The notes under the pieces were generated by a model that saw only the letters and a list, made by a program, of their open reading frames with translations, was not told the origin of the DNA and searched no databases. A program made the translations under genes and the position numbers. Shown one piece after another: positions 23,916 to 64,000 of a stretch of DNA of 64,000 bases. The DNA lies in contig OZ234493.1 of the NCBI GenBank assembly GCA_965153455.1, positions 31,424,213 through 31,488,212 of the forward strand, in the 5' to 3' direction. Numbering within the stretch: position 1 is the stretch's first letter; each line of letters starts with the position of its first letter. Origin of the DNA: Sphagnum compactum (lineage: Eukaryota).

Positions 23916-24818
23916 TCAAGGTGTTGTTGAATCAGACATACTTATCTCTGGTTCTGGGAAACTGAAATTGGCATCCATAGTAAATGCCCCTGTTGGTGAG
24001 AAAGTGGAACTCATGCCAAACATACCAAAGCCGCCCAGTCCAGTGGGACTGGGCAAGCCAAAGGGAATGGCGAATTTCGGAGACAAAGGAGAAGGGAATC
24101 GTGTTGGTACTGGAACATGAACAAGTGGAGCAGCATCTGCTGCTGTAGCTGATGATGATTCGTGTCTCACATGATGATGATTTCCTCCCCCTGCACCTGC
24201 ATTTTCTGCTGGCTGCTGCTGCTGTAGCACCCCAGCAGCTTTGGGGGACTCCAAGGAGCTCAAGGAACTGGCCCATACATTGTCACTTGGACTCAAGACT
24301 GGCAGAGGAGAAAAGGAGAGAGGAGACACTGGAAACGGTGAAACTCTTTGGGAAGAAAGAGGGGAAAACCTCCCAAAAGGTAAAGGACTAAAACCTGGAG
24401 CAGATGTTGCCAAGGGTAAGGGGGCTGCTGCTGCTGCTCCAGTTTGGGGTTGTTGATGCAGAGTTGGGTATGCGAAAGTCGGCCGCAACGGCGGTGGGGC
24501 AATCTTCTGCAACCGTGAGACAGTAGGCTTAGTTGGCGGAGGGCCCGGTTCCCTTTCTCCTGAAGAAGATGATGATGATGATGGTGATGGTGATGAGGAG
24601 GAGGGGGAAGTACCCGTCAACTGTTGTACCAAAGACCTAAAATCACCGGGCTCAGTCTTGTAAATCTGGGCTGTTGCTCGAGGTTGCGCCACCGGCCGCC
24701 GTAACCCCTTGGCTATCTTGCTGGAAGCTCTGTTCACTGCCAGAGGTCCACCACTCCGGCCTCTTCCCCCAACATCCCCTGCTCCATCCGACATATCCAT
24801 GGCCATAGGATCTGACAT
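23916..24818 (-). CDS. VQ-motif-containing protein (300 aa, single exon)
   Basis: IYKTEPGDFRSLVQQLTG matches the FxxxVQxLTG VQ motif, followed by SRLQKIAPPPLRP and many SP/TP sites typical of MAPK-substrate VQ proteins. A GA-rich 5' leader lies upstream. Confidence 0.92.
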   Translation of the reverse strand: MSDPMAMDMSDGAGDVGGRGRSGGPLAVNRASSKIAKGLRRPVAQPRATAQIYKTEPGDFRSLVQQLTGTSPSSSSPSPSSSSSSSGEREPGPPPTKPTVSRLQKIAPPPLRPTFAYPTLHQQPQTGAAAAAPLPLATSAPGFSPLPFGRFSPLSSQRVSPFPVSPLSFSPLPVLSPSDNVWASSLSSLESPKAAGVLQQQQPAENAGAGGGNHHHVRHESSSATAADAAPLVHVPVPTRFPSPLSPKFAIPFGLPSPTGLGGFGMFGMSSTFSPTGAFTMDANFSFPEPEISMSDSTTP

Positions 24819-29194: not shown

Positions 29195-32100
29195 CAATGG
29201 TTCTTTTTTGGGTGAGATTTCACATTTTTTGACTTGAAAATTATGATTTCAACACATCTAAAAGATTTTTGTGAGAAGAAATATTTGCCAAAATTTTGAA
29301 AGACATAGATTTTTAAATCCCCAAATTCGTAGAACAAATTTTAGCAAATAGCCAAAATATAATTGATTGTTAAAATATACAGTTCACATATACAGAGATT
29401 GTTTGATGAATCAAATGTTGTTGCACTGACTGAAACACACTTGTTCCCTGATGAAACACCACTGCATATGCCTGGTTTTCAGTGTTTACACAATCCACGC
29501 CCTGTATTTGACATGAGCTCAGTCAGAGCAGCAATGAAGCATAGTGGTGGTGTTGTAGTATTTGTAAATGACTCTTGGTCACTGTGTATCCCTATGGAAA
29601 CAGAGCACAAATGGCACCAGATTGTGGCTACAGTTCCAACGCTCGGGGGCTGCACCGTTGTTTTTGGCTGTAGTGTATGCTCCACCCAAAGGGTCCCCAT
29701 ATGCTAATGAAGGCTTGTTTGATAACATTGCTGCAGAGGTCGGCATGATTCAGGACCTTGGGGGCAGTATTTTACTCACTGGTGATTTCAATGCAAGGAC
29801 CAGTGCAGCTGACGACTATGTTGATTGTCGTTACTTTGTAGAGCACATGCCTGACACGCTGCCATTGGGGAATGACTTCCCGGAGGTTTTGCCTAAGCGA
29901 CACAACTCGGACAAGGGGGGGTTGAAAGGTTGGCACAATGAGTTCTTAGACCTTTGCAGCTCCTCGGGATTGTTCATTCTCAATGGCAGGATCGCAAGCG
30001 ATGAATCAGGGGAATGCACTTGCCTTGCCAATGGCGGCTCCAGCCTTGTGGATTATATGGTCGCATCACCTGCTCTGTTTGATTGTGCCACATCACTTGT
30101 GGTACATAAATGCCCTCTATTCTGTGGAAAAGGGGGTGATTCCGACCACAGGCCACTTTCACTCAACTTGCAGTTACCTTGGCAACATGTGTCACCAACA
30201 ATTTCAGACTCTCGTGCAGACATCCGTCGTTTCAAATATGATGCTAGCAAGTGCACACAGTATTGTCAACACCTGCAGCAACAGATTGCCCAGTGCACAA
30301 CACAGATGAGTGACACAAACAATGTTGACATGGCCGTGCAGTTGTTGCATGATTGCATTTGTAACGCCGTTGCGGCTGTGCATGGTTGCCCTGTGGCACG
30401 CACCAGTACAACACAACATCGTCATCAACCATGGTTTGATACTGAATGTTGTAGCAAGCACAAGGAAGTATCTGCATATGCAAAGCTTCATCCTAACAGC
30501 CATTTAGCACGCGAATAGAAGAAGCAACTTAAACAGCTACTGTGTCGTAAGAAACGCACGTACAAGAAGCTGCAAGGGCGACAGTTGTGTGCACTAACAA
30601 AGACAGATCCAGCCAGCTTTTGGAGGCAATACTCCAAGACCAAGGAACGATCCGTTGCTATCAGCAAAACAGACTTGGTTGCTGGCTTCCAGAAGCTATT
30701 GGAAGGACAATGCCCCAGTAATACAGCTGGGGCACAAGGTAGCTCTACAGATCAGGTGGTCTTGAACTTGTCACACCCTTTTGCAAGTGATGCTTGCAGC
30801 ACACTAAACTGTGACATAACCTTAGATGAAATTGCGCAAGTGATGAGGAGACTCAAACGTAACAAGTTTGCTGGCTTAGATGGCATCAAAGCAGAGTTTC
30901 TGCTTGATGCTGGCGATATGTTGCATGTACCACTATAGATTGTATTCAACAAGTTGTTGCAACAAGGTTATTCAGCAAGCTTGTCTACTGGAGTCATTCA
31001 TGCATTGCACAAGGGTGGTGATGCCTTGCAATTTGAAAACTACAGGGGAATCACAGTGGGTCCTGTATTAGCTAAGGTGTTTGCCATGATTCTTGAGGCA
31101 CGGTTGAGCAACTGGGTAGAAAAGAGGGGCCTACGTGCCAGGGGACAGGCTGGTTTTAGGAAAGATTTCCGCACCACGGATAACTTGTACATTTTGCGAA
31201 CGCTCATTGAACAGAGCATTCATAAACGCAAAAAGGTGTACTGTTGTTTTGTGGACTTCCGCAAAGCTTTTGATACAGTGCCCCGTGATCTGCTATGGCA
31301 AGTGCTAGATGAGATGGGAATTGTGGGTCGCTGCATGCAGTGTCTACAGAGCATGTATAGCCAGGATAGCGTCAGAGTTATGCATCCAACAGAAGGGCTA
31401 TCAGCCCGGTTCCCATGTGGCATTGGGGTCAAACAAGGCTGTCCACTGAATCCACTGCTTTTTGGACTCTACCTTGATGGACTTGAGAAACATCTAGATG
31501 CACTTGAGGGCGACAGCCCGCCACAGCTGGCAGACATAATAGTCAAATTACTGTTGTATGTCGATGATCTGGCATTAATGTCAGAAAACCCACAAGGGTT
31601 GCAGAAACAAATAAATGATTTGTCTGAGTTTTGTGTTGACCGACAATTGGTCATCAATGTGAGCAAGACCAAGGTGGTGGTGTTTGAGAAACACCGCAGT
31701 GTAGTGCCAGAGTTCACATACAGAGGGACAACCATTGAGCGGGTTCAATCATTCAGATACTTGGGCTTAAAGTTACATAGTACAAAAGGCATGGCAGTAG
31801 CCATAGCCAAATTGACTGCTGCTGGGAAGAAGGCACTGTTTGCATTACGCCGCAGATGCAATGATCTGAGCATAATAGATCCGGAAGTAATGTGTCAGTT
31901 GTTCGACTCACTGGTATGCCCAGTACTGAGCTATGCATGCGAGGTGTGGACAGGTTGTACAGGGGCGAAAGGGTTGCAACAAGCAGAACAAGTACATAGA
32001 ATGTTCCTGAGAGGAATATTAGGGGTCAATAAAACAACAAACACTTTTGTTGTATTGGGGGAGTTTGGTAGGTATCCATTAGAATATTTCTGGTGGCAAC

Positions 32101-32945
32101 AAACTCTCAAGTATTATGATAGGCTACGGAAATCCACAGCAGATCGTCTGTTGTACTGTGCCTACCAGACCCAGATCCAAATGTTCAGCATGCTCAATGA
32201 TAACCAACAATGTTGGCTCCGGAACGTGCAGTTGTGGCTTAAAGACCAAGGTGTTGAGGTTCTCTATGCTAATATCAAGTGTGCTATAGCAAGTGCACAG
32301 GCTTCTTACCTAGAATCTACTTATGGTGAACAGGCCAGAACCAAAAGTAGCAGATTACGTACATACCAGCTGATGAACACAAGCTGTACAACAGAATCTG
32401 GATACTCATATGCACATCAGAGGTATTCGCAAGTGATCACAAATGTTCAGCTCAGGCAATCTTTGTCAAGGTTCAGATGTTCAAATCATCGTTTGGAGGT
32501 AGAGTGTGGCAGGCATGCAAAGCCTGAGAGTGTCCCGAGGAGAGATAGGATTTGTCGTCTATGTTCCCTAGGAGCTGTTGAGGATGAAGACCACTTGTTG
32601 TTAATGTGCCCAGCTCACCATGACATTCATTGCAAGTTTAGTCAACAGTTAGGGAAACAATTGACACTATGCAGCTTACTTCCTGAATTGATGCATTCGG
32701 CTAATCAGAAAGCGGTAGCTTTGTACTTAGTTTCTTGCCTAGACAACAGGAGTGTTTTGCTCAAGTCAACTATGTAATTGTCGTCAAATGGATCTCTTTG
32801 GTCCGGGTATTGACGTTAAATTAAAAGAAAGAAAAAAAGAAAGTTAAAAAAATTCCCTACTTTAATGAATGACCTATAACCAAATTTGACTAAATCTTCA
32901 TGTGGATGAATACCAATTTGGCTACATTAATATTTTTTAAAAAAA
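29195..32945 (-). mobile_element. MITE-family copy split by the LINE (29195-29375 and 32843-32945)
   Basis: The left part ends ATAGCCAAAATATA..TTGTTAAAA. The right part continues AAATTCCCTACTTT...CAAATTTGACTAAATCTTCATGTGGATGAATACCAATTTGGCTAC, the reverse family core, in the same order as the copy at 56990-57100. Confidence 0.55.
29376..32842 (+). mobile_element. RTE/RTEX-like LINE (AP endonuclease + RT + C-terminal Cys/His motif), 5'-truncated and inactivated
   Basis: Endonuclease motifs VALTETHL, SGGVVVFV, VYAPP, TGDFNAR, SLVDY, SDHRP. RT motifs NYRGI, QAGFR, FVDFRKAFDTV, GVKQGCPLNPLLF, LLYVDDL, FRYLG. C-terminal RFRCSNHRL...CRLC...EDEDHLLLMC. One frameshift near 29570 and in-frame TAG at 30516-30518 and 30936-30938. 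(GAAA)-type tail at 32823-32842; candidate TSD GTTAAAA at 29369-29375 and 32843-32849. Confidence 0.9.
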
Positions 32946-58860: not shown

Positions 58861-59608
58861 TCTTTTAACACAACCAGCTAGTGACAAATTTGGATTCTAA
58901 GTTGTAACATGAATGACTCATTGTTGGGGGAATTGAACCCCAATTTCAATGAGACTATGCCCAATGCACAACAATTTTCCTACAGCCCACAAATTGGAAC
59001 CCAATTTGACCCCCCAATTACATCACAACTTACAAGTACAAGACTCAAGCCTTCAAGCACCAAATTGTAGGTAAGAACAATGGTAAAACACAAACACAAA
59101 CCTCAAACCCTTCCTCGATCCACTCATTGTAGTCCTTTGTTGACCGACACACTTGCATACCACATGGAGTTCAAAAGGAATTTGTGAAAATGGAATACCA
59201 ATGAGTCAATACACGTAGTTTCAGCAAAGAAAATAGGACCCAAATTATCCCTACATTATATGTTAACAAACTCAAAAGTGCCCCAACAAAAAGAGGACTT
59301 AACAATTTGCAAGTAAGTACCTAGTTCCAATAGAAAGGGCACTTAGCAACTTGTAAGTAGAAACCTAGATGCCTCCACTAGTAAGGCATTTGTCTTCAGG
59401 AATCAACACAATATCATGTTTTTGTGCTTGTCCATTGGTTGATGGCCTCTTCAAAGGGAAGTTTTGAAATGTGTAGAAGCATTGCGCATAGAATTGAATG
59501 CACAAATCCAAATGGGTGGTCTCAACTTGTTTTTCATGAACGTTCTTTTTGAAAAACATTGCTTGTCTTCTATAGACCCAAAGACTTGAACACAAGCTAT
59601 TTTAGCTA

Positions 59609-61914
59609 CACCGGTTTCCGTAATTAATGTTACTCACATTATTTGTGAACAGTGTTTTTACACATCGCTTTCCGTTATTAATGTTAATAACCTTAATAGC
59701 GCGTTAACATTAATACAGGCGTAATCTAAATAATGTTAATAACATTATTTAAATCGATACCTAATTAATGTTAATAAGAGAAAACTGTATTTTGGCGGTT
59801 ACGAAACTGCTACAGTTTTACATTAATATTTATTGTTGTGATGTTACGGAGGATGAAGCGCTTGATCACGCGAAACGCGACGGAGGCAGTCTGCTGAGGT
59901 TTAATCGCGCAACGGGGCGTCGTCATCATGCGGATCCAGATCCGGTACAGCAAGACCTTCGAAATGTTGACGATGTTTTTCAATGATGATTTGAAGATTG
60001 CGATTGAGTTGTTTTTCATGCCATTCTCCTGTGATGTCGAGGGACAGCCCGCAGCGAATCATCGCCTTACGGGCGTAAGTCAGGCCGGTTTGATCGCGTT
60101 GCTCGTTTACCCGACGAACTGCTTTGGCAGCCATGCGCAAAAAAAACGATTTTTCGGGATTTTGAAGCGCGCCAGATCCTTCACGCCAGAGGCCATCCTT
60201 GATGGCTTTGAACTTATAGTCGTCCCAAATCTCCATCCAGGCATCCTTGATCTTCGAGATCACGAACGAATCGCACGGCTGAATCTTGTCGGTCGCGGCA
60301 ACCACCAAGTAGCGAAGAGTGGCATTGCTCAACTCCAACGTTGCGTGCATGTTCCCATTACCGTCATCGTGATGGCCGTTGAAGTTGTCCACAAATATCA
60401 CTCTCTGCTTGGACCGATCGGCTGCATGTCCGCGGTAGTGAGCACGTGGTTCTTGGAGGTATTGCGCCCACAGCTTCTGCGTGATGAAACCCTTCTTGGT
60501 CGTCCTGTAGCAGACTCCAGGGACGTCATCAGGTACTCCGCGAATAGGATAGCTTTCGCTGGCGTTCTGGAAAATGACACATGGATTACAGATTCTTGCA
60601 TGTGGCCCGCCCGTTAGCCGAATCATCAGCGTCATTCCCATGCCGCCAGATACTACATCAGCGTACTTGACATCATTGTCACCGCGAAATCCCAGTGTCT
60701 TGCCGTTGTCCAAGTTGACCTTGCAATGCGTTTCATCGATGTTCTCAACCAGGTTCTCATCGAACGTACCAGCGCGAAATTCTCTCGCAAGCTGTCCGAG
60801 ATGGAATGCGATTTGCTTGTCGATATGTTGCTGACGAGTAGGGCTCAGCATCAACTTGCCAGTTTGAGCTCGACCGACGATATTGTTGACCGTCTGAAAA
60901 CGCTGAATCCATCTTATATCGATGCGATCAATGATAGTGGTGCCCTTGTGCTGTAGGTTGGGAGGGAAATCAGGATGATTCATCTCTACCAGGATGTCCT
61001 TCGCGAGGCAAACCAGTAGCTTCGGACTGAACTTCACGCCCATTTTGCGATAGCGGTCAAATTCGTCGACAATGAGAGGATACAGCCAGTCGACCCATGG
61101 AGCCCGCTTTGGTCCTCGACCAGGGGCAGCTTTTGTGAGCACCTTCTTGGCTTTCCCCGGCTGCGCAGAGTTGCAGGATACCATGTTGTCATGATCGTCA
61201 CGGATCTGTAGAATAGTAGCGCGTTTTTCCCACCAGCGTGACGACTTCATGATCGTCGCAGATGTCGTCCCTCGAAAATGCTCGGGGAACGCCTTGACGG
61301 TTCGTGCGTGCAGTCCTTTTTCCCCGTTCGCTTCGTTGTCATTGATCATCCACTCAACAACTCTAATGCGAGTTTGCTGAGTTGTGACTGCGGTAGGACG
61401 CTTTTTCTTTCCCAGAGCACGAGGATTGTCGGCGAGCTGTTCGCCAACGATGACGCGGTCATTGTTCGCAACAATTATCACGTCATTGGCTGCGCCATTC
61501 GGGTCCAATGGTTCGGGTGGCTCCTTTTCGTCATCGGCAGCCTGACGTTGACGAGCAAATGCACGAACAATGGGAGACGGGGAAAACACCGACAAACGTA
61601 CTGCTCCACGTTGTATATCCCGTGAGGATTGAGAGTTCGACGGTGCAGACATGGCGAAGAGAACGCTTTCGGAGCGAGAAGGAGCTGGGGAAGCAACAAA
61701 GGTATGGGACTATCGTTGAAGAAGAAGTGTTCGAAAATATTTGAACATACGTCAGTGCCAGCTGGCGCCACTTTGCAGTCTGCAACCCTTACAACGAGCT
61801 GTAGCAGTGCAGCTGCCTTCTCGTCCCAAGATCCCCCATTCCTCCATTAATGTTAATAACATTAAATGGGAACTAACATTAATTTGGTATTAACATTAAT
61901 TACGGAAACCGGTG
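59609..61914 (-). mobile_element. Full-length Tc1/mariner-superfamily, pogo-type DNA transposon (2306 bp)
   Basis: Perfect 24-bp TIRs CACCGGTTTCCGTAATTAATGTTA (59609-59632; reverse complement at 61891-61914), TA on both sides (59607-59608, 61915-61916), subterminal TAATGTTA repeats and a single intact transposase ORF. Confidence 0.95.
59901..61652 (-). CDS. pogo-type DDE_1 transposase (583 aa) with a CENP-B-like HTH region
   Basis: Intronless ATG-to-stop ORF. Catalytic motifs ENIDETH, VIFVDNFNGH and KIQPCDSF, with 38 residues between the second and third Asp. HTH-like GRGPKR...WIQRF; basic KKKRP is a candidate NLS. Confidence 0.9.
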   Translation of the reverse strand: MSAPSNSQSSRDIQRGAVRLSVFSPSPIVRAFARQRQAADDEKEPPEPLDPNGAANDVIIVANNDRVIVGEQLADNPRALGKKKRPTAVTTQQTRIRVVEWMINDNEANGEKGLHARTVKAFPEHFRGTTSATIMKSSRWWEKRATILQIRDDHDNMVSCNSAQPGKAKKVLTKAAPGRGPKRAPWVDWLYPLIVDEFDRYRKMGVKFSPKLLVCLAKDILVEMNHPDFPPNLQHKGTTIIDRIDIRWIQRFQTVNNIVGRAQTGKLMLSPTRQQHIDKQIAFHLGQLAREFRAGTFDENLVENIDETHCKVNLDNGKTLGFRGDNDVKYADVVSGGMGMTLMIRLTGGPHARICNPCVIFQNASESYPIRGVPDDVPGVCYRTTKKGFITQKLWAQYLQEPRAHYRGHAADRSKQRVIFVDNFNGHHDDGNGNMHATLELSNATLRYLVVAATDKIQPCDSFVISKIKDAWMEIWDDYKFKAIKDGLWREGSGALQNPEKSFFLRMAAKAVRRVNEQRDQTGLTYARKAMIRCGLSLDITGEWHEKQLNRNLQIIIEKHRQHFEGLAVPDLDPHDDDAPLRD

Positions 61915-64000
61915 TAGCTTCATAAATTCCAAGAGTTTATGCTTGAGGATGGAGGAAAATCTAATCTTGGTCCATGACCAAATGACAAGGTTAACATCAA
62001 ATTTCTCCTTCATGATCAACTTATTGTTTGTAATCATAGTCATCTTACAAAATGAACATTGCAAATCCAAAACATAGCCATCAAGCATAGCTTTCATCCA
62101 CATCCCATCATTTCCCATTGTGCAAAAGATGCAATAGGTATATTTGATGATAGTCATGTGTTGATGAAAATTATCCTTAGCATTAATGGGATGATTAGCC
62201 CAAAAATTAGGGTAGATTACACCCAATGTTAACATAAACTCATGATTTGGAATTTTTCCTTGTTGCTCTTGGACTAGAATTTTTGTAGATTCTTTGCACT
62301 CCATTTTCACATAATCCATCACCAATGGGAAATATGGCCTCAAAATTGAGTTCCTCACCATTTAAATATGTGCACTATCCCATTAGCAAATTGTTACTAG
62401 TGAGTGTTTCAAGAGCCTTTAACTCACTTAAAATTCGGTCATCAAATTTAATATATGGATCAAAACAAAGTTGATAAAGTCAAAGTTAACACATCTTCAC
62501 CATATCAATGAAGTCACATATAAACACATCACAAGACTATGCCAACTTGATGATTGTATGCACACAATCCAAAAGTGACATAATCGCATGTAACCCCCAA
62601 ATGATTTCCAAATTGTAAGGGAGGCTCAAATTGTCATTACTAGTGTTATTCCTTGGTGCCAAATGTGCATCTTTGCAATCAAATGTTAATATTGTTCCAT
62701 GACACACGTCATAGGAAATAACACACAAACCCATTGCATCTTCACATTTTTTAGCAATTTGTTTATTTTTTTGGTGAGCACATCATAAAACTTTTGATAT
62801 TCAAGAAACCTATTGGGTGAAAGAGAAAAATTCATACAAAGCTTCCAAACATGGTAGTAGAAATTCCAAGCAAACCACCAAACTTAGTTTCAATAGGACC
62901 AACACAACTAAGTTGGTTTGATGAATAAAGTAATGCATTTTGATCATGAATGGAACCACAATCTCTGTCATTTGAGTGCTCACACCAACTTGTGAACCCT
63001 TTAACACATTACTACTATGGTAGCCCATTGAGATCAACTTGCTTCCTAATTCTTTAAAGCGCTCACTCCACCAAATGTTGCCAAAGCTTTGAACATGAAA
63101 TTAAACATGTTATTAATTATACCCTACACATCAACCTTCTCCACACAAATATTTAGAAGTGGGATCCTTTTTCTAACTATGAACAACATACATATGAATG
63201 GAGATCCAAGAGGTGTTGTCTGTCATAATGACCTTATCCACACTCATGAATACAAAATTTCCAACAAGGATTACAGTTTGAATGGATTGTACAACAAATC
63301 ATTCATGGATTGAACAATATGTTAACCCATCAAATCACTCCAATGTTTTTTATTGTGTGCCTAAACTTGAATAAAAAGAACAAAATTTTCAAACCCTTGA
63401 AATATGTCACCAATTGACCTATAAACATCATGATAGATGGTAGCAAACTAGGCATATTTTTGCATCTTCTTTTAGGGAACTTTTGTTACAACAAGGTCCA
63501 CAATGGAAGGGTGTTCATTAGTAATAAAAATCTTCTCATTGTGTGCATGCATGCTATTTTTATTAAAGTAAAAAATCAATTTCAACCCCTAGACTTGCAA
63601 CCTTAGCCTTACACCTACCTACATGCTTAAATAAGCTATCAAGTTAAATAACTTTTTTTTTTCTTTGCCTTCAACCTTTGAACAAATTGCACAACAAACT
63701 TGATGAACATTACCTCTAGTGTTTATTAAAAAATTTGCCCCAAAGAAGGCACATTACTTAACAATCTTAGAAATGTTTAACACCTTCATGATCTTGTTTT
63801 TTTCACTACAAGGCTTGAACCTAAAAAATCATTTGATGACATCATTACAATTTTGAAAGCTTATAGAACTTCAAAAGCTTGCAAATTAGGATTGATTTGG
63901 TGAGATATAAAAAGGAAAATTGGCCTAAACCTAAAGTTTTTAAGAATGAACAAAGGAGGCATAATGGATCATTTGAATGAAAAAGAAAACAAAAGATATA

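Follow-up and report, generated by a model that had tools for sequence, protein, structure and literature searches.

A probable Mover-like pogo transposon of Sphagnum, with a young insertion in Sphagnum compactum

We analysed a 64,000-nucleotide stretch of the Sphagnum compactum genome (assembly GCA_965153455.1, contig OZ234493.1, positions 31,424,213 to 31,488,212 of the forward strand), referred to here as the window and numbered from its first letter, and followed up a structurally complete DNA transposon of 2,306 bp that occupies positions 59609-61914. The element very probably belongs to the pogo superfamily of the IS630-Tc1-mariner group, in or next to the family named Mover, and is a copy of a transposon family established in moss. 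As a transposon it is of a common type, and what is unusual is the group of hosts: it is probably a land-plant variant, with 38 residues between its last two catalytic aspartates (DD38D), of a known pogo family centred on the stramenopiles, alveolates and rhizarians (SAR).

The superfamily can be read from the transposase and from the ends of the element. The transposase open reading frame (ORF) runs for 583 amino acids on the minus strand with no stop and matches the Pfam family DDE_1 with an E-value of 2.4e-8 (34.2 bits, against a cut-off of 22). Its catalytic aspartates are D306, D422 and D461. Over 45 aligned sequences, all of which contain DDE_1, D306 is invariant, and D422 and D461 are found in at least 90%. 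The first-pass annotation of this DNA, which was made from its letters, had already named perfect terminal inverted repeats (TIRs) of 24 bp, a TA duplication, an unbroken frame of 583 amino acids with three aspartates and the DD38D spacing, and these features were all confirmed by repeat, ORF, alignment and domain analysis; its assignment to the pogo type likewise agrees with the DDE_1 match, the DDD triad and the TA duplication. No Pfam DNA-binding family was found in the window transposase at E-values up to 1, and none of the 45 aligned members matched CENP-B_N, HTH_Tnp_Tc5, HTH_psq, BrkDBD or HTH_ABP1_N at E-values up to 0.001.

Within pogo, the most fitting group is Mover. In the part of Gao et al. 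(2020, Mob DNA 11:25, PMC7386202) used here, Mover is described as a small family that has 36 residues between the last two aspartates (DD36D) in all members and a DNA-binding motif undetectable by hmmscan, and that occurs only in one red alga, five stramenopiles and one rhizarian; its members form a clade with 100% bootstrap. In our alignment of 90 homologues, DD36D is found in 79, including every named non-Sphagnum row with all three aspartates, and DD38D is found only in Sphagnum-type rows, three of which have all three aspartates and one of which has the third replaced by asparagine; the remaining rows are truncated or mutated. Because the relatives are DD36D, show no detectable DNA-binding domain and occur in stramenopiles and Rhizaria, we infer that the element is Mover-like and that DD38D arose as a two-residue insertion in the Sphagnum lineage, although the Mover sequences of that paper were compared by description only. 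Two points weigh against membership in Mover itself, namely that the spacing is 38 and not 36, and that the tree presented below includes no Mover reference sequence, the likeness resting on the published description. Nevertheless, the earlier proposal of an undescribed DD38D family was not supported, given the DD36D spacing of most homologues, the lack of a detectable DNA-binding domain in all 45 aligned members and the match to a published family. The literature that we searched contained no description of the Sphagnum family, nor of Mover-like elements in peat mosses or liverworts. As far as the part of PMC7386202 used here goes, pogo elements in land plants are limited to the Lemi clade, with 23 eudicots, and the corresponding part of a second survey (PMC7325037) lists dicots and Selaginella as hosts of pogo, with no bryophytes noted among the hosts of the PlantMar family.

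A structure model built on the 45-sequence alignment (mean predicted local distance difference test score 78, predicted template modelling score 0.61) shows one bundle of helices at residues 92-154, another at 185-255 and, from about residue 300 onwards, a core of mixed alpha/beta structure. When this model was compared with solved structures using Foldseek, the best matches were Mos1 mariner transposase complexes (E-values of 2.5e-7 to 1e-4 over 442-459 columns), followed by the catalytic domains of SETMAR and Mos1, with template modelling scores (TM-scores) normalised to the target of 0.54-0.67, and then by retroviral integrases. On the strength of the model, the helical bundles within residues ~85-260 are predicted to form a bipartite helix-turn-helix DNA-binding region. 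A sequence search of the PDB with the transposase returned no matches at E-values up to 1. The language-model neighbours of the protein are clusters with DDE_1 and HTH_Tnp_Tc5, including one named “Pogo transposable element with KRAB domain-like”, which we regard as a lead only. A few of the outside homologues (P0010, P0012 and P0060) have an N-terminal Znf_SCAND3 zinc finger, with an E-value of 7e-8 in P0010; this finger is absent from the window protein and from most relatives.

The ends of the element were recovered by a repeat search as an inverted pair of 29 nt, 59604-59632 and 61891-61919, with 100% complementarity. Each arm consists of the perfect 24-bp TIR, the flanking TA and three palindromic flank bases, giving the arrangement AGC-TA, element, TA-GCT. 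For comparison, the number of perfect 24-nt inverted pairs expected by chance in 2.9 kb is about 1.5e-8. Elsewhere in the 64-kb window, the TIR is found only as one internal copy with three mismatches; this degenerate copy (59663-59686, 3/24 mismatches) is in direct orientation, 54 bp inward of the 59609 end. The window also has eight copies of the 9-nt motif TTAATGTTA or its complement, all of them inside the element and four near each end. By analogy, these subterminal copies are putative transposase-binding sites. The window contains no further copies or fragments of the element.

Considered alone, the window copy allows the target-site duplication to be read as TA, AGCT or TAGCT. The two longer readings were rejected, as other insertions of the family show TA on both sides with otherwise unrelated flanks. 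Counting the window copy, this is the case for 13 of 13 distinct two-ended insertions. Beyond the TA, the base counts over 49 distinct half-sites that we pooled (A at position -5 in 44, C at -3 in 40, T at -2 in 48 and A at -1 in all 49) reveal a strong preference of the family for the palindrome A-N-C-TA-G-N-T. By comparison, the target usually given for this transposon group is a plain TA, which is less strict. As for the mechanism, it is most likely the standard scheme of the IS630-Tc1-mariner group, with a chemistry that we take from the family. The 583-residue transposase would bind the 24-bp TIRs and the subterminal motifs through a predicted pair of N-terminal helix-turn-helix domains, both ends of the element would be cut by the RNase H-like active site formed by the three aspartates, and reinsertion would occur at a TA that is then duplicated, with A-N-C-TA-G-N-T being strongly favoured.

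Evidence that the element belongs to a resident family comes from a scan of moss-type metagenome contigs, in which we collected 64 related loci. Their blastn segments are 88-98% identical, with long segments at 92-96%. An intact coding region was found in none of the 24 full-length loci, each of which is disrupted by 1-23 in-frame stops and/or a frameshift. The 24 copies and the window copy together give a star-like tree, with end branches of 0.024-0.049 for independent copies and of 0.0115 for the window copy; four pairs separated by very short branches correspond to the same or nearly the same locus from different data sets. The best protein matches of the transposase are partial proteins with 87-92% identity, and the 90% clusters to which they belong include members named Sphagnum magellanicum and Sphagnum tenellum. 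The family is also present in sequencing runs from two organisms coded A and B, and runs labelled as moss metagenome contain the stretch itself. Altogether, it would appear to be an established multi-copy resident of mosses that amplified in a burst and most of whose copies are now broken.

The copies also differ in the region upstream of the transposase gene. In the short form, 262 nt separate the element end from the ATG (window copy, L007, L011, L022 and L038), while the medium form has ~310 nt more (L018 and L035), and the long form has ~575-590 nt more (L001, L008 and L061). Since the short copies have one common junction, at 61741/61742 of the window, and occupy at least five different sites, the short form has been mobile. 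We considered the possibility that the extra segment is a spliced intron, but this was rejected because the short form retains GTATGTTC at the junction, which would be lost under precise splicing. The extra segment is GC-rich, includes a GA-repeat and is entered by an RNA contig; it may contain the promoter or the 5′ untranslated region (UTR). Other rearrangements seen among the copies are a tandem duplication of element positions ~21-150, which are 5′ subterminal in ORF orientation (L005, L006, L015, L016, L023-L025 and L027), and a ~1.1-kb insertion after element position ~82 (L004, L014, L030 and L064).

Contigs from four public runs were compared with the window over positions 58900-62600. 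Run X1 (organism A) has two contigs that span the left and right junctions without any difference from the window, although X1 is possibly the source sample of the assembly itself, in which case it does not count as independent support for the junctions. Run X8 carries the label of organism A but comes from another sample and study, and in it a contig of 2,950 nt proceeds from 58900-59606 straight on to 61915, skipping 2,308 nt with two ambiguous letters, that is, an empty site with a single TA. A contig of 3,959 nt from run X9 (organism B) likewise shows the empty site. The flanks of the X8 and X9 contigs differ from the window at 22 of ~1,393 and 23 of ~1,254 letters, respectively (~1.6-1.8%), and as each is the sole contig covering the flanks in its run, we consider that they represent the orthologous site and not a paralogue. 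Tc1/mariner-type excision usually leaves a footprint, and thus the clean single TA argues that the X8 and X9 lineages never had the insertion. The window insertion is therefore young, as the first-pass annotation had suggested; it is later than the split from the X8 and X9 lineages, and the site is polymorphic. Within the history of the family, the window copy would be a later insertion, missing at the same site in other samples, that has retained an open frame and perfect ends.

The window copy has nevertheless started to decay by C-to-T type changes and may or may not make a working transposase, while its ends should still be movable by transposase from another copy. We give somewhat less than an even chance to the possibility that it was dead on arrival or recently inactivated, in which case its ORF would be open by chance, its transposase would be nonfunctional owing to G500E, to other changes or to the loss of the 5′ promoter or UTR segment, and the element would be at most a passive substrate. 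Several observations agree with this possibility and weigh against autonomy. Relative to the column majority of the other 24 copies, 22 of the 1,752 sites of the window copy are changed. C>T or G>A, the pattern of methylated, silenced DNA, accounts for 20 of these changes, and 8 are at CpG; 10 are synonymous and 12 are non-synonymous, giving 12 amino-acid changes. In the broken copies, 572 of 1,509 substitutions are synonymous, and the share in the window copy does not differ from this (binomial p 0.51). Stops were created by 71 of the 1,509 substitutions in the broken copies, and at this rate a copy with 22 changes stays open with a probability of 0.36; thus, the open frame is not evidence of selection. 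Moreover, G500E affects a glycine present in 41 of 42 non-Sphagnum homologues. On the other hand, the window copy retains the three catalytic aspartates and, with the exception of G500, the other listed invariant residues, and its insertion site is polymorphic. E500 is also found in four of the other 24 copies, and the short 5′ form recurs at the different sites mentioned above, so elements with these features have moved, though possibly by transposase supplied in trans. The runs agree with the changes counted in the window copy: a high-depth interior contig of X1 differs from the window at 20 of 1,799 letters, nearly always by A>G or T>C when the window is taken as the starting point, and the majority of these differences are found again in X8, X9 and an RNA run.

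That RNA run, the metatranscriptome X15, has contigs over 59795-61741 with 95-99% identity and none on the flanks. These are assembled contigs from an RNA library in which DNA carry-over is possible, and they are not assignable to the window copy. The family is probably transcribed. However, the X15 contig runs on beyond 61741 with sequence matching the extra segment found in medium- and long-form copies, and hence the transcript seen is not from a short-form copy. The window copy thus lacks the 5′ segment entered by the only RNA contig seen there, which again speaks against its autonomy. The features of the element are collected in Table 1.

Table 1. Features of the transposon and its target site, in window coordinates
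Feature	Positions	Strand	Basis
Left TA of target-site duplication	59607-59608		Sequence; TA/TA family-wide; empty site in X8 joins 59606 to 61915 with 2 shared letters
TIR, 3′ end relative to transposase gene, 24 bp, perfect	59609-59632	+	Inverted-repeat and motif search
Subterminal region, four copies of the 9-nt motif TTAATGTTA or complement (59624, 59678, 59705, 59765)	59609-59790		Putative transposase-binding sites
Transposase ORF, 583 aa	59901-61652	-	ORF, DDE_1 match, model, fold matches
Catalytic RNase H-like DDD core, residues ~300-470	60243-60755	-	DDE_1, alignment; codons D306 60735-60737, D422 60387-60389, D461 60270-60272
Two helical bundles, residues ~85-260, predicted bipartite helix-turn-helix DNA-binding region	60873-61400	-	Model, Foldseek
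Short-form junction, segment of ~310 or ~575-590 bp absent relative to other copies	61741-61742		Copy alignment; RNA contig of X15
5′ subterminal region, four motif copies (61847, 61857, 61874, 61891)	61840-61914		Motif search
TIR, 5′ end relative to transposase gene, 24 bp, perfect	61891-61914	-	Inverted-repeat and motif search
Right TA of target-site duplication	61915-61916		Sequence, empty sites, family insertions

The origin of the moss family is the least certain step of our proposal, in which the moss lineage probably came from a stramenopile- or rhizarian-type lineage by a long-ago horizontal transfer. The affinity outside land plants claimed by the first-pass annotation was borne out, since the relatives are mainly stramenopiles and rhizarians. 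Protein identity is 56% for Plasmodiophora brassicae, 47% for Spongospora subterranea, 46% for Fragilaria crotonensis, 42-52% for Phytophthora and Nothophytophthora species and 39-50% for the liverwort Riccia sorocarpa; no red alga is among the named relatives listed. In the 120 matches listed and the clusters consulted, the only names of land plants are Sphagnum and Riccia. When viral contigs were scanned with a profile, 32 pattern stretches matched, none of which encoded a relative. We built a maximum-likelihood tree of 51 proteins by a quick search, with support from the Shimodaira-Hasegawa-like approximate likelihood ratio test (SH-aLRT), leaving out three truncated Riccia rows and the rows beyond P0045 without an organism name. 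In this tree, the four Sphagnum-type rows (support 100), on a stem of 0.66 changes per site, are sister to Plasmodiophora brassicae (SH-aLRT 94). Together they join two contig rows (96), and the enclosing clade of 11 rows (97) also holds three Riccia rows and one row of Phytophthora megakarya. Forcing Sphagnum and Riccia into one clade makes the tree 27.5 log-likelihood units worse, with p 0.001 in the approximately unbiased (AU) test. From the tree and this rejection, it follows that the Sphagnum and Riccia lineages are not each other's closest relatives and that non-plant rows lie between them. Given these intervening sequences and the SAR-dominated range of the relatives, it is plausible that there was at least one old horizontal transfer, which this combination favours over simple vertical descent, whatever its donor, direction and date.

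Some considerations count against a horizontal origin. Among the matches listed, there is no outside sequence closer than 56-58% protein identity, and the group submitted to the AU test was named after the tree had been seen. Transposon lineages can be old and differentially lost, and most of the relatives are contigs without an organism name, so the host range is poorly known and other plant hosts may be hidden among them. These last two points lend some weight to a purely vertical history, in which a pogo lineage from the land-plant ancestor or earlier persisted in peat mosses and Riccia but disappeared almost everywhere else, and so does the presence of Sphagnum and Riccia in the same 11-row clade. 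We nonetheless regard such a history as unlikely, as the Sphagnum protein is nearer to that of Plasmodiophora (56%) than to those of Riccia (45-50%), the AU test rejects a clade of Sphagnum and Riccia, an oomycete and a rhizarian stand between the two plant groups in the tree, and two published surveys, in the parts used here, are without such elements in bryophytes (PMC7386202, PMC7325037).

At the opposite extreme, the element or the whole family could have entered very recently from an oomycete-, red-alga- or similar donor, as the first-pass annotation had proposed, and this would account for a foreign composition. The element does have a GC content of 0.49 (0.52 in the ORF) against 0.37 for the rest of the window, and a CpG observed/expected ratio (o/e) of 1.23 against 0.33. 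Nevertheless, an ORF of the host with a VQ motif has a GC content of 0.526, level with the transposase ORF, which means that the GC content of the element is not foreign and only CpG stands out, with an o/e of 1.20 in the transposase ORF, 0.37 in the VQ ORF and 0.42 and 0.48 in the reverse transcriptase and endonuclease ORFs of a long interspersed nuclear element (LINE). Thus, the claim of an alien composition holds for CpG and fails for GC. Even the CpG content is a family trait and not a clock for the window copy, since broken copies of the family that are 3-5% diverged retain a coding-region o/e of 1.0-1.2. The star-like tree of the copies has the shape expected after an invasion, and the scarcity of land plants among the named relatives, which are mostly stramenopiles and rhizarians, would also suit a recent arrival, but the best named outside match has only 56% protein identity, the others listed have at most 55-58%, and the Sphagnum stem is long. 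Furthermore, this is a multi-copy family in which decay amounts to 2.4-4.9% on the branches of the individual copies and none of the 24 is intact, and it occurs in clusters of two Sphagnum species and in runs of organisms A and B. A recent transfer is therefore not supported, the family having spread and decayed before the window insertion, and we consider it highly improbable. More improbable still, to the point of being negligible, is an assembly artefact or a contaminant joined to plant DNA. The high CpG relative to the flanks could be taken as a sign of one, and no listed contig spans the whole stretch; however, the X1 contigs cross both junctions without a difference, the X8 and X9 contigs show an exact deletion of the element plus one TA, as at a real insertion site, and many other copies are found in AT-rich flanks with TA duplications.

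Regarding the rest of the window, the VQ-motif ORF encodes 300 aa at 23916-24818 on the minus strand (E-value 1.4e-7); the motif is plant-specific and marks the host as a land plant, and the host coding sequence at this ORF is strongly CpG-depleted. A LINE-like retroelement at 29568-32777 has a 563-aa ORF that matches RVT_1 (E-value 7e-26), and upstream of it lies another ORF, of 316 aa, whose weak matches to endonuclease/exonuclease/phosphatase fall below the Pfam cut-offs. The first-pass annotation had described every other transposase or reverse transcriptase region of the window as disabled, and these two ORFs are what the present analysis saw of such regions. In the 2 kb to the right of the transposon (61915-63914), the CpG o/e is only 0.07, and several run contigs end or join there (joints at 61953-62188 and 62081-62544). 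The setting suggests that the element lies in or beside another old repeat. No Pfam match was found in the 7 flanking ORFs or in a 153-aa ORF that overlaps the right end of the element.

In a more far-reaching scenario, the family would descend from an exchange across kingdoms that involved an ancestor of Sphagnum and a plant-associated parasite, either stramenopile or rhizarian (phytomyxid-like), and it would still be transposing today. We put this forward tentatively and find it rather doubtful as a whole. If it is true, this would be the first Mover-type pogo element known in land plants, and an ecologically important moss would possess a cut-and-paste element of its own whose 8-bp palindromic target, A-N-C-TA-G-N-T, is unusually strict. 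Pogo elements are rare in land plants according to two large surveys, in the parts used here (PMC7386202, PMC7325037), and the Sphagnum family widens the known host range. In addition, the nearest named relative resides in an intracellular plant parasite, Plasmodiophora, which would make the family a concrete case for transposon exchange between parasite and plant. Finally, the polymorphic site, the open frame and the perfect ends make it reasonable to begin with the window copy when asking whether a DNA transposon is mobile in Sphagnum; such a transposon would be of use for insertional genetics in peat mosses.

Several known systems can be compared with the element. The DDE-1 proteins of Plasmodiophora brassicae, Spongospora subterranea, Phytophthora, Fragilaria crotonensis and Riccia sorocarpa share its conserved blocks and catalytic residues, at 42-56% identity over 74-96% of the length, but all of them are DD36D and too distant for a recent donor or recipient. 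The Lemi clade, typified by Lemi1 of Arabidopsis, has in common with the window element the pogo superfamily, the TA duplication, the DDD triad and a plant host. In contrast, Lemi elements have HTH_Tnp_Tc5, with or without HTH_ABP1_N, and are described from 23 eudicots in the part of PMC7386202 used here, whereas neither domain was detected in the window transposase and no angiosperm is among its named matches listed. The mariner transposases Mos1 and Hsmar1 (SETMAR; structures 4U7B, 3HOT and 3F2K) are the best fold matches to the model, the SETMAR catalytic domain reaching a TM-score of 0.67 when normalised to the target. They have the plan predicted for the window transposase, two N-terminal helix-turn-helix domains followed by an RNase H-like DDD core, and share the TA target, although identity is only 10-15% and mariner transposases, at ~340 aa, are shorter and represent another superfamily within the IS630-Tc1-mariner group. 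As for Mover, the Sphagnum lineage differs from it in having 38 residues instead of 36 between the last two aspartates and in its land-plant hosts (peat moss, and Riccia for a sister lineage), which are not listed for Mover in the part of PMC7386202 used here. Nevertheless, both have the TA duplication, short TIRs of 40 bp or less, DDE_1 and no DNA-binding domain detectable by hmmscan, and the relatives of the moss element are DD36D (79 of 90) and occur in stramenopiles and Rhizaria, as Mover does.

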